Shown here: positions 48,598 through 58,074 of the stretch, one piece after another
Layout of the letters: every line of letters begins with the position of its first letter
Position numbering within the stretch: the stretch's first letter is position 1
Translations under genes and position numbers: made by a program
NCBI GenBank assembly: GCA_020402865.1
Contig: JADBYT010000021.1
Location: forward strand, 73,314 to 137,313
Reading direction: 5' to 3'
Length of the DNA: 64,000 nt
From: Bacteroidota bacterium
Lineage (GTDB): Bacteria; Bacteroidota; Bacteroidia; Palsa-965
The notes under the pieces: model-generated
What the model was told of the DNA's origin: nothing
Databases searched by the model: none
The model's input: only the letters and a program-made list of their open reading frames with translations

Positions 48598-51500
48598 ATG
48601 AGCAGCACCAAATCCAAAACGATCGGGAAGGCCGCACCAAGTGTGCAAACGGCCCGGCAGGGTGCTGCGCATACCGTAACCACCAATGCACCGGTGGTGG
48701 CTAAAAAAGACAGCCTTTCTGCTGTAGTTCAACGCGCACAAAATGCGCAGCCCGTAGTGCAGCAAAAAATTAAAATGGGCGTGGTGGGCGATGCGCACGA
48801 ACAACAGGCCGATGCAATGGCCGAACAGGTGCTCAGCATGAGCAACGAACAGGTACGCCGTCAGCACCTGCGTGTACAACCTAAAAACAGTGAACGCCCG
48901 CAACGAAAAGAAGAAGTTAAAAAGAAAGACGAAGTTCAGAAAAAAGAGGAACTCAAAAAACAAGAACTCCGGAAGAAGGATGAACTGAAGAAAAAAGAAG
49001 AACTCCAGAAACAGGAGTTGAAGAAAAAAGATGAACTGAAGAAGAAAGAAGAACTCCAGAAACAGGAGTTGAAGAAAAAAGACGAACTGAAGAAGAAAGA
49101 AGAACTCCAGAAACAGGAGTTGAAGAAAAAAGACGAACTGAAGAAGAAAGAAGAACTCCAGAAACAGGAGTTGAAGAAAAAAGATGAACTAAAGAAAAAA
49201 GAAGAACTCCAGAAACAGGAGTTGAAGAAAAAAGACGAACCGCTTAAAAAGAAGGCCGACGAAAAAATTCAGAAACAGCAGGAAGTACAAAAAGTTGCGG
49301 TTGATAAGGTTCAACCCAAAATAGTAGCCGCAATGGCCGTTCAGCCGAAAGAAGAGCTTAAGAAAAAGGCCGACGAAAAAGTACAGAAGCAACCCGAAGT
49401 ACAAAAAGCGGCAGCCGAAAAAGTGCAGCCGAAAATTGTGGCCGCTGCAACTGTGCAAACCAAAGAAGAACTGAAGAAAAAGGCCGATGAAAAAGTACAG
49501 AAGCAGCCCGAAGTAAAAAAAGCGGCAGCCGAAAAAGTGCAGCCGAAAATTGTGGCCGCTGCAGCTGTGCAAACCAAAGAAGAGTTAAAGAAAAAGGGCG
49601 ACGATAAACTGCAAAAGCAGCAGGAAGTGCAGAAAGCGGCCAACGACAAGGCGCAACCCAAACTCGTGGCCACCAAAATGCGCGACCAGCGCGAAATGGA
49701 GCGCGACATAAAACCTGCGCTGCCTGTGCAATCAAACATGCAGGCGGCGGTGAGCATTCAGCAAAAAGCGCTCGACACCACGCAAAAGGAAAAGCCTTCG
49801 GAAGAAGTGCGGCGCCCCGGCACACTGCCTGTTTCGTCGGGCATGCAGTCGGCCATGTCGCAGGAGCAGCATAAACTCAGCCGCAAGGAGGACAAAGTGC
49901 AGTCTGAAAACGCCGTTGCGGTTGAAGCTCCGCAGGATGAGGTGCCGCCACACATTGAAGAGCAGCTGAAAAACGTAAGCGGCGGCCGCCCCATGGAGCC
50001 CGGCATACGTGGCTGGATGGAGCAGCGTTTTGGTGTAAGCTTTGCCGCCGTGCGTATCCACACCGATTCGCAGGCCATTCGCCTTTGCAACGAACTCGGT
50101 GCGCATGCTTTTGCCTACGGTTCCAACATTTTCTTCAACGCAGGCAAATACGATCCTGAATCAACCGAAGGCAAACGCCTGCTCGCACACGAGCTTACAC
50201 ACGTGATCCAGCAAGGCTACGCGCCCGAAAGCAACTCCGATGCCGCCGAAGCTTCTGCTCAGGTGCAGCAAAGCACTGCACCCGAAGTGAAGAAATCAGC
50301 ACCCGAAGTAAAAAAGTCGGCCCCGGAAGTGCAGAAGGCCGAACCTGTGGCACAGCGCCTGCCCGGTGGTGTGTCAAATGCGCCGCTTAGTGTACAGCGT
50401 GGCATCTGGGATCGGGTAAACAATGCTGTACGCTATGTGGTGCCGCCGTGGACACTCATCACGGTTATTTTCGGCTACAACCCTATTCTCGGCGCAAGCG
50501 TGGCCCGCAGTCCCATCAACTGGTTCAATGCCCTGCTCGATCTCATTCCCGTAGTAGGCCCGGCCATATTCGATTTGCTGCGCAGTTCGGGCATGCTCAA
50601 CCGCGCACAGCAATGGCTCGATGCACAGCTTGCACGCCTGCCCTCACTCAGCGAAATCAGCAGCACATGGGATCGTTGCTGGGAAGAAATGGGCATCAGG
50701 CACGGCATCGACGGCAACATTGCTATATTCAGGCGACACTTCGGCAGCATACTCTCGCGCATCGGCAATTTTGTATGGAGCGCACTGGCCGAAGTAGTAC
50801 GTTTGCTGCGAGAAACACTGCTGCGCCCGCTCGACAATGTAATAAAAGACATTCCCGGCTGGACACTCATCACCGCCATGATCGGACTCAACCCGCTCAC
50901 CGGCGAGCGCGTAGAACGCAATGCCACCAACATTCTGCGCGGGGTTGCAGCTTTCATTCCCGGCGGCGAAGAACGTTTCAATCAGCTTGTAGAAAGCCGC
51001 GCCCTCGAACGCGCCTACCAGTGGTTTGTAACCGAAACCACCGCCCGCAACCTCACCTGGCCGCGCATTCAGAACACCTTCCAGCAGGCATGGAATACAC
51101 TCCGCGCCGAAGACATTCTGCACCCCATTGATACCTTCCGCCGCCTCGCCGGCATCTTCTCGCCCCTGCTCCGCGATCTGGTGAGTTTCTGCGGCGCCGC
51201 ACTGCTCAAACTCCTGGAGTTTATTTTCGAAGCCGTAATGGGCGCCGGCGGTGCCGATGTGCTGGCCATCATCAAACGCGCCCGCGAATCGTTCACACTC
51301 ATCATTCAAAACCCCGTAGGCTTTGTAGGCAACCTGCTGCGCGGCATTGGTCAGGGCGTGCGCCAGTTCATGGGCCGCATCCTCACGCACCTTCAGCAGG
51401 GCGTTATACGCTGGCTCACCGGCCCCGTAGCCCGCGCCGGAATACAGATGCCGCCACAGTGGGATGCAAAAGGCATACTGTTCTTCGTATTGCAGATACT

Positions 51501-57519: not shown

Positions 57520-58074
57520 ATGGAAAACAGAATAGATTGGTTCAAAAAAGTACTGAGTAGTAATAATAATAAACTTAATGACTTCATTTCATGCTTTGAT
57601 GACAAGTCCGTCTTTGAAGGATTAATGACTGAAGATAAATTGAGACTTTGTGTACCATTAATAAAAGATGGTTCAGAGTCTATATTTGCAATCTGGCAAA
57701 TTCATTCAGAAAAACCAATTGAAGAACAGCCAATTGTATGGATCGAAACGGAAGCAAACCCTATATCAGTTTGCGCATCTAATTTCAATGATTTCCTTAG
57801 TCTAATGCCTTATGGCGGGTACCTTCATAATCTATTATCAAAACTTGATTTTTATCTGATCGAAGGGAGAACAAATGATAAATATATCAGAACAAGTAAT
57901 GAAGACTTATTAAATATTATTATTAATTGTCAAAATGAATACCCCGAAATGTCTGATTTTAACAGAAGACTTCAAAGCGAGTTGAACATTCTTCCTGCCA
58001 ATAATCCGTTTACAATATTCATAAATGCTATTGATGGCGAACAGGATTTTTACACATGGATGAATAATGAATAA
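57520..58074 (+). CDS. SUKH/SMI1-KNR4-like immunity-type protein downstream of effector 2
   Basis: 184 aa, starting 1 nt after the effector 2 stop. Very low GC. The pattern SIFAIWQIH...PIVWIETEANPISVCASNFNDFLSLM resembles SUKH-superfamily immunity proteins. Confidence 0.55.
   Translation: MENRIDWFKKVLSSNNNKLNDFISCFDDKSVFEGLMTEDKLRLCVPLIKDGSESIFAIWQIHSEKPIEEQPIVWIETEANPISVCASNFNDFLSLMPYGGYLHNLLSKLDFYLIEGRTNDKYIRTSNEDLLNIIINCQNEYPEMSDFNRRLQSELNILPANNPFTIFINAIDGEQDFYTWMNNE

Follow-up and report, generated by a model that had tools for sequence, protein, structure and literature searches.

The window, that is, the whole 64-kb stretch of DNA that we analysed, carries an eCIS structural operon followed by two large predicted cargo genes, E1 (48598-53331, 1577 aa) and E2 (53823-57518, 1231 aa), each with a small ORF behind it (I1, 53346/53352-53801; I2, 57520-58074). 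The earlier note had given these reading frames and had attached the two large genes to an eCIS; the frames stand, and Pfam matches in the upstream operon bear out the attachment. By position in the window, the features are:

24817-48586, + strand: eCIS structural operon, 5' of the cargo genes (Pfam matches)
26507-28432: sheath (Phage_sheath_1C)
28484-30319: tube genes (Phage_T4_gp19 twice, CIS_tube)
30316-32076: VgrG-like spike (Phage_base_V/GPD)
32399-32824: gp25 (GPW_gp25)
32832-36797: baseplate J-like protein (Baseplate_J)
45177-47237: tape measure protein, TMP (CIS_TMP, E=6.5e-97)
47177-48586: AAA+ ATPase (AAA)
48598-49989, + strand: E1 N-terminal Lys/Glu/Gln-rich low-complexity region, aa 1-464 (translation, composition)
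49990-50217, + strand: E1 DUF4157/eCIS_core (PVC-metallopeptidase) domain, aa 465-540 (PF13699, E=9.7e-29)
50233-51183, + strand: E1 middle region, aa 546-862, with an internal repeat and hydrophobic segments
51184-52052, + strand: E1 copy of the shared all-alpha carrier core (BLASTP against E2), its 3' end being the recombination breakpoint
52053-53331, + strand: toxin part of the E1 exchangeable cassette, with hairpin, helical linker and putative divergent Endonuclea_NS_2 His-Me nuclease
53346-53801, + strand: I1, candidate cognate immunity gene, likely start ATG 53352
53823-55619, + strand: E2 N-terminal region, with an S/T/P-rich start, a basic low-complexity stretch and a coiled-coil segment
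55620-56541, + strand: E2 copy of the shared carrier core, ending at the breakpoint (KKLWGG)
56542-57518, + strand: toxin part of the E2 exchangeable cassette ("tox2" family), with hairpin, two long helices and a C-terminal domain
57520-58074, + strand: I2, candidate immunity gene for tox2, starting one base after the E2 stop codon
58075-58619, no strand: non-coding 3' flank of the replaced segment (blastn against the relative L019)

E1 starts 12 bp past the AAA+ gene, which is preceded by the sheath, tube, spike, baseplate and CIS_TMP genes, and both E1 and E2 lie at or near the 3' end of the eCIS operon. E1 itself carries DUF4157 (PF13699), with HELTHVIQQ (HExxHxxQ) at 50188-50214. A Pfam search of E2 for this domain found none; E2 has it in its neighbourhood, two genes downstream of E1. 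The N-terminal region of E1 (aa 1-464) has a net charge of +32 and contains DNA tandem repeats at 48925-49640 (51 bp, 6.2 copies; 114 bp, 3.5 copies). Likened to the N-terminal domains of AlgoCIS Cgo1/2 (bioRxiv 10.64898/2026.05.27.728243), it is presumably a disordered loading signal. In the N-terminal region of E2, the coiled-coil segment is conserved and apolipoprotein-like.

According to the earlier note, the two proteins share a core of about 250 aa, followed by a short junction motif and by unrelated C-termini. The pairwise alignment that it proposed as a check gives a significant match between E1 aa 863-1200 and E2 aa 600-949 (BLASTP, 29% identity, E=2e-44) and nothing significant elsewhere, which confirms both the core and the unrelated C-termini; at about 300-340 aa, the core is somewhat longer than claimed. 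Each copy has two hydrophobic helices (51721-51777 and 51925-51981 in E1, from hydropathy; 56181-56237 and 56364-56420 in E2), and the AlphaFold2 model of the E2 copy is all-alpha, at moderate confidence (pLDDT 73.5). The junction motif is present as well, as GEAHTL at 52150-52167 and GDTHTL at 56628-56645, the position first reported for E2 being one base off. This G-x-x-H-x-L motif makes up the first strand of a beta-hairpin with which the variable cassette opens (GEAHTL...IHT, 52150-52212; GDTHTL...LRS, 56628-56690) and is common to many otherwise unrelated tails. Core and hairpin matched no model in Pfam, NCBIfam or PHROGs, the last of which yielded no TMP match to the core, and we found no description of them in the eCIS-effector papers that we consulted. 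The core model had no structural match among known structures; PF09718 is present in one distant relative.

A comparison of orthologous loci for joint swapping of the C-terminus and the downstream ORF, also suggested in the earlier note, revealed near-identical cores, unrelated tails and sharp DNA breakpoints. Namely, in relatives with cores 86-100% identical, similarity ends abruptly, the tails are unrelated and the downstream ORFs differ; identity stays at 86-100% up to aa ~1150 in E1 and aa ~905-915 in E2, with background beyond. E1 and its L003 orthologue are ~90% identical, with background after aa ~1150, and their DNA homology stops at 52052. For E2, DNA homology ends at 56541 against L001, 56533 against L002, 56534 against L036 and 56570 against L019. 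The actual point of exchange precedes the G-x-x-H-x-L motif by 30-45 aa (~52052 in E1, ~56533-56570 in E2). Among 168 protein pairs with a core identity of 80% or more, 88 have tails without BLAST similarity. Synteny with L019 is back from 58619 onward (75-79% identity, blastn). We searched 58075-58619 for orphan toxin or core remnants and detected none, and found no orphan cassettes or carrier fragments within the 64-kb window; core-gene fragments do lie 3' of the cassettes in L019, L001 and L036.

Base composition was the other sign of exchange in the earlier note, whose hand counts of G+C (38, 22, 27 and 14 of 60) are all exact. The low G+C of the tails does continue through the next small ORF, and strongly so at the GC3 level: values are 0.654 for the E1 middle region and core, 0.341 for its tail and 0.377 for I1, and 0.639 for the E2 N-terminal region and core, 0.203 for its tail and 0.272 for I2, with the eCIS structural genes at ~0.50. 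The lowest-GC 900-bp segment of the 64 kb (0.309; mean 0.477, sd 0.052) falls in the E2 tail/I2. Across the core family, GC3 of the tail correlates with that of the downstream ORF (r=0.81), and both lie below the constant part (median difference +0.095). Tails are basic and partner ORFs acidic.

Nuclease-type toxins, guessed at in the earlier note, find support for E1; the E2 tail has no family assignment. Against PF13930, the E1 tail scores 15.4 bits, below the gathering threshold of 27, and its four tox1 relatives score a likewise sub-threshold 15-24 bits; all five align to the same region of the model (51-117). A profile built from tails that pass the PF13930 threshold matches the E1 tail at E=4e-18, and the catalytic motif R-G-H ... 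N ... N ... E is present, in the form VRGH...N...N...E (VRGHLMNGKLGG..NLTPITDTANN..QVE, 52744-52860). Judged by this profile and motif, the E1 tail is a divergent Endonuclea_NS_2 (His-Me finger) nuclease. I1, which is acidic (pI 4.6), is paired with tox1 in five loci, with homologues directly 3' of tox1-type tails in L039, L032, L018 and L083; in one tox1-I1 locus the carrier lacks the core.

The tox2 family has 188 representatives, all C-terminal in position, and is almost confined to this carrier, the core being present in 68 of its 73 long members. Its invariant residues are E-G and D..DHQP (56970-57047) and RH..G.T (57147-57200). In the AlphaFold2 model (pLDDT 84.7), a strand with the invariant D-H-Q-P at its end precedes another strand and a short helix that bears the invariant R-H; the 36-residue insertion between the strands is atypical for His-Me fingers. 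Searches of Pfam, PDB sequences and Foldseek gave no match. The E2 toxin would represent an undescribed family, possibly also a metal-dependent nuclease. I2 is acidic (pI 4.5) and is paired with tox2 in five loci, its family lying 3' of tox2 tails in L019, L063, L039 and L083. Of nine tox2 tails in other genomes, five have no I2-like gene behind them, an observation that leaves two readings, namely that tox2 can at times do without immunity or that I2 serves a different role. I1 shows no relationship to I2, and neither gave a match in PDB profile searches or a significant one to an immunity family (Pfam E-values 0.03-0.1), the best hits being SUKH-4 for I1 (E=0.065; 0.1 for the L039 orthologue) and SUKH_6 for I2 (E=0.033), below threshold. 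A search of a 5.8-billion-protein collection found no close I2 homologue. For both, only linkage, composition and charge speak for an immunity role.

Several hundred genomes, from more than 10 phyla, encode the core, nearly always next to eCIS genes. For the E2-type core, we counted 199 tblastn-confirmed relatives in species-representative genomes and ~107 of a further sub-lineage, across more than 10 phyla and including one archaeon. Locus-level counts (ORFs, tails, neighbours) were taken from the first 80 loci, which contain 117 core-bearing ORFs, 108 of them complete and with a tail of at least 150 aa (usually ~200-430 aa). Two or three such ORFs stand in tandem in 31 of the 80 loci, and three more have fused double-core proteins. 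The E1 middle region is kept in E1-type proteins (35 of 80 loci); E2 N-terminal homologues are present in 72-75 loci, an Afp15-like AAA+ ATPase in 64 and DUF4157 in 46. The core carrier bears 39 tail families. Endonuclea_NS_2 accounts for 41 of the 108 tails, and others are Ntox15, Ntox4, GH-E, NAD1 deaminase and BMT5 methyltransferase. Immunity families encoded downstream are Tdi1_C/GAD-like, SMI1_KNR4/SUKH_5/SUKH_6, DMP19, pentapeptide and HEAT. Chaperone-type ORFs (YbjN, CesT_Tir, TY-Chap1-type) stand behind some of the tails in related loci; immunity genes do not account for all downstream ORFs of the core family. The family of the tail varies together with that of the downstream ORF; this is co-variation only, and neutralisation is our reading of it.

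By its sequences, the E1/E2 family has what defines polymorphic toxins, namely a conserved carrier, unrelated C-termini and a sharp boundary. The presence of toxin domains and known immunity families at equivalent positions across the family supports the polymorphic toxin architecture that the earlier note had proposed. We therefore favor, with a probability of about 0.75, a scenario in which E1 and E2 are eCIS cargo with a shared core, a swappable toxin cassette and a neutralising partner ORF, replaced as a block. The build of the two proteins, the breakpoints, the diversity of the cassettes, co-inheritance and the eCIS linkage are shown by the data; the loading route, toxicity, neutralisation and target organism are what we infer. 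Both would be effectors of the eCIS encoded directly upstream, with a common four-part build. The disordered N-terminus is probably, by analogy with AlgoCIS, the signal for the adjacent AAA+ ATPase, which would feed the protein into the tube lumen. The carrier part comprises the DUF4157 metallopeptidase-like domain and middle region in E1 and the coiled coil in E2. The all-alpha core of ~300 aa, with its two conserved hydrophobic helices, may serve tape-measure-like membrane insertion or translocation, the latter role being our conjecture. Last, the C-terminal cassette consists of the G-x-x-H-x-L hairpin, a helical linker and the toxin domain, in E1 a putative DNA/RNA nuclease with an Endonuclea_NS_2-type His-Me finger. 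I1 and I2 would belong to the cassette and most likely bind and neutralise the toxin in the producer, possibly also in kin cells. Recombination at the 3' border of the core would swap hairpin, toxin and partner gene together, in the manner of CdiA/Rhs-type polymorphic toxin systems; such a block replacement would explain why homology stops so suddenly and why the cassettes have a foreign composition with low GC3.

Alternatively, I1 and I2 could be dedicated chaperones or adaptors that hold the cognate tail unfolded or soluble for AAA+ loading, hence the co-variation. The chaperone-type ORFs of related loci, the lack of significant immunity-family similarity in I1 and I2, the tox2 tails without an I2-type gene (5 of 9) and the report that most eCIS toxins have no immunity genes (Geller et al., PMC8213781) are all consistent with such a role. 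We nonetheless consider it rather improbable: bona fide immunity families occupy the same position elsewhere (Tdi1 after Ntox15-bearing loci; SUKH), an acidic small protein next to a basic nuclease domain is the classical nuclease-immunity pattern, and AlgoCIS loading requires the N-terminal region only, not the C-terminal domain (bioRxiv 10.64898/2026.05.27.728243).

Two described types of cargo bear on the target. Tme of Streptomyces davawensis is a large protein encoded beside CIS genes. It combines an N-terminal DUF4157 with long stretches of disorder and coiled coil, with helices predicted to be hydrophobic/transmembrane and, at the C-terminus, with a DNA/RNA non-specific nuclease (EndA-type, DRGH); according to its authors, tme-like genes are spread across phyla (PMC11126660). 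By description, E1 has the same order of parts. Unlike E1, Tme has no reported immunity partner or C-terminal polymorphism, and our core pattern scans recovered no Streptomyces loci. Sle1/Sle2 and Micromonospora RS14790/RS14785 lack DUF4157; they begin with a coiled coil, continue with a helical region in which a transmembrane hairpin is predicted, and vary at the C-terminus; the cargo gene adjoins that of a DUF4157 protein, and in one member a nucleic-acid-targeting C-terminus is neutralised by the downstream gene (PMC13277306). E2 beside E1 resembles this arrangement in layout. Of the traits of tape-measure-related effectors, a coiled coil and hydrophobic helices are present in E1/E2, with no match in PHROGs and none to a known structure. 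Descriptions of the Sle1 family are limited to Actinobacteria with intracellular CIS, and DUF4157 resides there in a small adaptor, whereas here it resides in a second full-length effector, E1. Tme promotes extracellular DNA release and sporulation in its producer (PMC11126660), and Sle1 tunes producer physiology (PMC13277306). E1 and E2 might likewise act mainly on producer or sister cells, in DNA release or programmed lysis, with the partners as timing brakes and cassette diversity as neutral turnover. Against this, the Tme and Sle1 systems are cytoplasmic CIS of Actinobacteria; cassette turnover between near-identical carriers, foreign composition and cognate partners form a pattern typical of conflict systems; and Ntox15-Tdi1 pairs, known from T6SS interbacterial killing, sit on the same carrier. 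A mainly self-directed function is thus quite improbable.

It is highly improbable that the tails diverged in place by fast evolution, the GC drop being an amino-acid by-product and no cassette having been exchanged: although the E1 and E2 tails still share the hairpin and linker module and some tail families are distantly related nucleases, similarity drops in a single step, over a few codons, in several independent relatives, the tox1+I1 pair also occurs on a carrier without the core, unrelated folds (methyltransferase, deaminase, Ntox15) occupy the same position, the drop sits in GC3 (synonymous sites) and extends into the next gene, and flanking synteny returns at 58619.

Our preferred reading, that of eCIS cargo with exchangeable toxin cassettes, extends a concept that is already published (PVC-metallopeptidase toxins, EATs, Tme, Sle1). 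PVC-metallopeptidase toxins and EATs have a constant N-terminal DUF4157, a long linker and a variable toxin, often a nuclease (PMC3482391, PMC8213781, PMC11297309); they are encoded at the 3' end of eCIS operons, with occasional adjacent immunity genes (Zhang et al. 2012, Geller et al. 2021, Danov et al. 2024). E1 has every one of these features. What lies between DUF4157 and the toxin is regarded as a linker in these papers, whereas in E1 it includes a strongly conserved core of ~300 aa that also occurs in the paralogue E2, which lacks DUF4157. Both E1 and E2 have partner ORFs, in contrast to most described EATs, which have none. The surprise of the earlier note at immunity-like partners on eCIS cargo was overstated, since polymorphic PVC/eCIS toxins as well as eCIS toxin-immunity pairs have been published (PMC3482391, PMC8213781, PMC13277306).

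AlgoCIS of Algoriphagus machipongonensis, a Bacteroidota eCIS with the tandem cargo genes Cgo1/Cgo2 at its operon end, offers a mechanistic template for loading: both proteins have a disordered N-terminal domain, DUF4157 and differing C-terminal domains, and the AAA+ protein Alg15 loads them into the tube lumen (PMC8894135; bioRxiv 10.64898/2026.05.27.728243). Yet DUF4157 is in both Cgo proteins and only in E1 here, and no immunity genes are described for AlgoCIS. No Algoriphagus locus came up in a pattern scan that used the Echinicola core as its single protein. With CdiA-CT/CdiI, Rhs, MafB and T6SS Tde1(Ntox15)-Tdi1 (PMC3482391; cited in PMC7073777), E1 and E2 share a conserved carrier, a junction motif, a variable tip, an adjacent partner and foreign composition. 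Leftover carrier fragments after cassettes, as in classical polymorphic toxins, occur here in relatives, and Ntox15 tails with Tdi1 ORFs on the same core carrier recall the Tde1-Tdi1 pair of T6SS. Delivery would differ, by a released phage-tail particle rather than T5SS, T6SS or T7SS; the G-x-x-H-x-L hairpin and the pre-toxin domain are unlike VENN, DPxGL and similar ones; and, unlike classical systems, the 64-kb window has no orphan cassette array.

More tentatively, and on balance doubtfully, the core may be an undescribed, tape-measure-like pre-toxin module dedicated to eCIS cargo, whose two hydrophobic helices would insert into the target cytoplasmic membrane and carry the nuclease across, the invariant-His hairpin being where the toxin is processed or released, perhaps through cleavage by the DUF4157 peptidase, in cis for E1 and in trans for E2. 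If so, eCIS would have a general modular route for delivering antibacterial toxins that act in the cytoplasm, and cargo could be engineered by fusion at a point that already exists.

The E1/E2 locus is a clean natural case of polymorphic-toxin logic in eCIS cargo, with breakpoints located to a few codons, and it supports an antibacterial or self-endangering activity of this eCIS. How a producer survives its own eCIS toxins is a puzzle that two concrete toxin/partner pairs make testable. The E2 tail is a candidate toxin family named in no library. Together, core and hairpin indicate a place at which eCIS cargo might be fitted with heterologous payloads, and in the search for eCIS effectors they offer a better handle than DUF4157 alone.

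The two giant eCIS cargo proteins and the small ORF behind each, all four claimed in an earlier note made from the sequence alone, are present as it described them:

48598-53331, + strand: E1, effector ORF of 1577 aa
53346/53352-53801, + strand: I1, ORF of 149-151 aa, candidate immunity gene of E1
53823-57518, + strand: E2, effector ORF of 1231 aa
57520-58074, + strand: I2, ORF of 184 aa, candidate immunity gene of E2, starting one base past the E2 stop codon

Upstream of E1 lies a complete eCIS operon (sheath, two gp19-type tube genes, a CIS_tube gene, VgrG-like spike, gp25 and baseplate J-like), whose last two genes encode a CIS tape measure protein (E=6.5e-97) and an AAA+ ATPase, the latter gene stopping 12 bp before E1. 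E1 contains PF13699 (eCIS_core/DUF4157; E=9.7e-29) with the signature HExxHxxQ, and a search with family models found no DUF4157 in E2. Apart from this domain, single-sequence searches of the C-terminal tails, the core common to both effectors, I1 and I2 against Pfam, NCBIfam, PHROGs and PDB sequences returned nothing significant. The product of the convergent gene downstream (58569-60607, - strand) has PKD domains and, at its C-terminus, a T9SS sorting domain. Since this neighbor carries such a domain and the closest relatives are Bacteroidota metagenome-assembled genomes, the host is an uncultured Bacteroidota bacterium.

The earlier note had read E1 and E2 as polymorphic toxins attached to an eCIS, with a shared core and swapped, unrelated C-termini. 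Pairwise BLASTP aligns E1 aa 863-1200 with E2 aa 600-949 (29% identity, E=2e-44) and finds no significant alignment outside this core. Comparison with related genome loci locates the point of exchange. Up to aa ~1150, the E1 orthologue of locus L003, the closest relative, has about 90% identity; it then continues into an unrelated 577-aa tail, which has no Pfam match and is followed by a pentapeptide-repeat ORF (L003:7655-8167; PF13599, E=3e-13); the DNA-mimic type of fold of such repeats would match a role in immunity against a toxin that targets DNA. Identity is 86-100% in the E2 orthologues of L001, L002, L019 and L036 as far as KKLWGG (aa ~905-915), past which their tails are unrelated, except that of L019, which belongs to the same family at only 31% identity. 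DNA homology stops at 52052 for E1 and at 56541, 56533, 56534 and 56570 for the E2 set, and synteny with L019 restarts at 58619; hence, the replaced block consists of the tail, the partner gene and a spacer. A strong terminator-like hairpin (13 bp stem, 58600-58569) lies where this synteny resumes. Fragments of the core gene are found 3' of the cassettes, that is, of tail plus partner gene, in three close relatives (L019:2181-2448, L001:3918-4168 and L036:1980-2133; 74-93% DNA identity to window 55415-56470). These are probably footprints of cassette displacement, as recombinational displacement predicts; the window itself contains no remnant of this kind, and no orphan cassettes were found elsewhere in its 64 kb.

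Within the carrier family, the 108 tails sort into 39 families, and 88 of 168 protein pairs with cores at least 80% identical have tails without BLAST similarity. Tail family and downstream-ORF family co-vary, which is the signature of a polymorphic toxin system. Together, the breakpoints, the unrelated tails on near-identical cores and this co-variation support the polymorphic toxin reading, under which toxicity and immunity are predicted for E1/I1 and E2/I2. The surprise that the earlier note expressed at immunity-like partners was overstated, as both the scheme and partners of eCIS toxins have already been published (PMC3482391, PMC8213781).

The drop in G+C at both C-termini, for which four hand counts had been offered (all exact on recount), is much sharper at third codon positions (GC3) than in overall G+C. 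GC3 falls from 0.654 in the middle and core of E1 to 0.341 in its tail and 0.377 in I1, and from 0.639 in the N-terminal part and core of E2 to 0.203 in its tail and 0.272 in I2; the eCIS structural genes have a GC3 of about 0.50. Of all 900-bp stretches in the 64 kb, the one with the least G+C falls in the E2 tail and I2 (0.309 versus a mean of 0.477, sd 0.052). Family-wide, the GC3 of the constant part exceeds that of the tail by >0.1 in 49 of 106 genes, with the opposite in 2 only, and tail GC3 correlates with downstream-ORF GC3 (r=0.81).

The core is a widespread carrier domain, covered by no Pfam, NCBIfam or PHROGs model. A profile of both cores matched 96 proteins from many phyla, mostly gene fragments; because these matches were 604 aa or less, effector architectures were read from genome loci instead. 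An alignment of 25 core sequences was too diverse to find loci. When one genome of each species was scanned, 199 relatives of the E2-type core were confirmed, and a further sub-lineage added about 107. Among the phyla of the carriers are Bacteroidota, Verrucomicrobiota, Pseudomonadota, Myxococcota, Acidobacteriota, Planctomycetota, Gemmatimonadota, Chloroflexota, Nitrospirota, Cyanobacteriota and Actinomycetota, plus one Methanoperedens archaeon; cultured ones include Echinicola arenosa, Spirosoma fluviale, Caulobacter, Sorangium, Actinoplanes and Arthrobacter. The first 80 loci hold 117 core-bearing ORFs, in tandems of two or three, like the window, in 31 loci; a homolog of the window's AAA+ ATPase lies nearby in 64 and DUF4157 occurs in 46. 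Three more loci encode fused double-core giants (L010:4682-11854, L055:4520-11701 and L077:5900-12046), single ORFs of 2048-2393 aa that resemble fusions of E1-type and E2-type effectors. In 108 complete ORFs, a tail of at least 150 aa (usually about 200-430 aa) extends past the core. Core identities of 60-70% across phyla suggest that horizontal transfer of effector genes is frequent. E2-type cores 66-84% identical occur in contigs binned as "Candidatus Methanoperedens" and Synechococcus sp. (L004, L003); the latter contig, with 79-81% DNA identity to the window, is probably a mis-binned Bacteroidota contig.

An AlphaFold2 model of the core built from 55 sequences (pLDDT 73.5) is all-alpha with a beta-hairpin at its end, and Foldseek searches of the PDB gave only generic helical matches (E>0.08; TM<0.21 normalized to the query, <=0.33 to the target). 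Two hydrophobic helices are conserved in the E1 and E2 copies alike. The G-[ED]-x-H-T-L junction motif of the earlier note is present (52150-52167 and 56628-56645) and general: 46 of 106 tails, from at least 12 tail families, contain its strict form, G-x-x-H-x-[LIVMF]...h-x-h-x-[STN]. The motif forms a beta-hairpin in both structure models. Its placement at the junction can be refined: the recombination breakpoint precedes it by 30-45 aa, so the motif opens the cassette rather than ending the constant part. Both the hairpin and the next helix are picked up in other tail families by the profile of one family, so that the first 60-90 tail residues are a shared adaptor.

Ahead of the core, the effectors share an N-terminus rich in S/T/A/K(/P), found in E1 (48598-48660), E2 (53823-53890) and orthologs (L018, L032 and L039). 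E1-type and E2-type effectors of one locus have this start in common (e.g., MSSTKSKTIGKAAP and MSTPTHTKSITPTV), which would agree with a loading signal specific to the system. DNA tandem repeats (51 bp x6.2, 91% match; 114 bp x3.5) make up the N-terminal region of E1 (48925-49640) and encode KKDELKKKEELQKQELK-type and EELKKKADEKVQKQPEV...-type units, and aa 1-460 have a net charge of +32. Repeat number may vary from strain to strain and could tune cargo length. Upstream of the core (50400-51000, aa ~610-800), E1 has an internal repeat, P-x-W-T-L-I-T-x-x-x-G-x-N-P-x-x-G, with hydrophobic segments; this region is kept in E1-type proteins of 35 loci.

The E1 tail (family tox1) matches a profile of tails that pass the PF13930 threshold (E=4e-18), in an alignment spanning VRGHLMNGKLGG..NLTPITDTANN..E. 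The E1 tail and four relatives match the same region of PF13930 itself, all under the gathering score. We call it a putative divergent Endonuclea_NS_2-type His-Me finger nuclease. The nuclease-type toxin proposed in the earlier note thus stands for E1, on this profile match; the E2 tail matched no family. BaCT, a PD-(D/E)xK domain considered because it can be fused to DUF4157 (PMC7073777), was rejected on motif grounds: the tails have His-Me-type motifs and no (D/E)xK motif. ORFs of the I1 family follow tox1-type tails in L039 (48% identity), L032, L083 and L018; a sixth tox1 locus, L081, has a 196-aa downstream ORF that is not I1-like. The L018 carrier (L018_20, 1266 aa, L018:3776-8058) joins a tox1-like tail and an I1-like ORF to a protein with no detectable core, indicating that toxin and partner travel together between carriers.

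The E2 tail defines a second family, tox2, with 188 representatives in an exhaustive HMMER search, all with the domain at the C-terminus. A joint tox1 and tox2 query had returned three tox1 relatives and no tox2, its word index missing tox2 relatives that exist. The core is present in 68 of 73 long tox2 proteins, which makes the domain nearly specific to the core carrier. Invariant residues include E-G, D..D-H-Q-P, R-H..G.T, R, D and D, as well as the junction-motif His. In the AlphaFold2 model (pLDDT 84.7), the hairpin and two long helices are accompanied by a compact domain, where D-H ends one strand and R-H lies in a short helix after a second strand. This arrangement would be compatible with a His-Me finger, yet with 36 residues inserted between the strands. 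The tail has no match in Foldseek, Pfam or PDB-sequence searches: its profile found nothing meaningful among PDB sequences, and its model only generic helical structures in the PDB (E>0.08; TM<0.21 query normalized, <=0.33 target normalized).

Across the carrier family, Endonuclea_NS_2 tails are numerous (41 of 108 in the first set, with 8 more matches in a second scan) and Ntox15 tails gave 9 matches over two scans; GH-E, Ntox4, AID/APOBEC-like deaminase, BMT5-like methyltransferase and HHH motifs also occur. Downstream ORFs include T6SS_Tdi1_C/GAD-like proteins, the family that provides immunity to Tde1, an Ntox15 DNase, as well as SMI1_KNR4/SUKH_5/SUKH_6, DMP19, pentapeptide, HEAT and LRR proteins. 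In some related loci, the tail is followed by a YbjN/CesT/TY-Chap1-like (type III chaperone-like) ORF, and in six Prolixibacteraceae loci by a Glyco_hydro_46 ORF. Given these two cases, the downstream ORFs are immunity genes in part only.

For I1 and I2, immunity is the reading that we infer to be best, with a probability of roughly 0.7 for I1; I2 is a somewhat weaker candidate, still favored. Each is tightly linked to one toxin family, shares a foreign composition with its tail and nearly abuts its effector; the partners are acidic (pI 4.5-5.2) beside basic tails (pI about 9), and proven immunity families occupy the equivalent position elsewhere in the carrier family. Against this reading, SUKH matches of I1 and I2 are sub-threshold only, and about half of the tox2 loci lack I2: ORFs of its family follow tox2 tails in L019, L063, L039 and L083, and none follows five tox2 tails from other phyla. 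The I1 and I2 profiles found no meaningful match among PDB sequences, hhalign detected no relationship between the two, and a joint query with both matched only I2 itself.

The general scheme of the locus is already published, and E1 and E2 fit a known kind of system. Zhang et al. (2012) described a constant PVC-metallopeptidase with variable toxins made by recombination, many loci being without immunity genes (PMC3482391). Geller et al. (2021) confirmed by experiment the protective partners of some eCIS toxins and described the stretch that follows DUF4157 as a "very long linker" (PMC8213781). E1 is built like Tme, EndA-type nuclease included (PMC11126660), and Sle1-type effectors, one with a toxin-immunity pair, resemble E2 (PMC13277306). 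Scans with the core pattern recovered no Algoriphagus (Cgo2) or Streptomyces (Tme/Sle1) locus, which is not proof of absence. Not covered by the cited papers are the highly conserved core inside the "linker," which paralogs share whether or not they have DUF4157, the hairpin at the junction, the tox2 family, and the I1 and I2 families.

A mechanism can be proposed by analogy. In AlgoCIS, filling of the tube lumen depends on a disordered N-terminal region of the cargo and on the AAA+ protein Alg15 (bioRxiv 10.64898/2026.05.27.728243; PMC8894135); E1 and E2 may likewise be loaded via their N-terminal regions and the adjacent AAA+ gene. Contraction would then expel the cargo. The hydrophobic helices of the core may, as a conjecture, enter the target membrane, a step that has been proposed for tape measure proteins, Tme and Sle1 (PMC11126660, PMC13277306), and DUF4157 may, equally conjecturally, process the cargo, a role proposed by Zhang et al. 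(PMC3482391). The nuclease tip would then attack nucleic acid, while the partner protein would protect the producer before release, and possibly its kin too.
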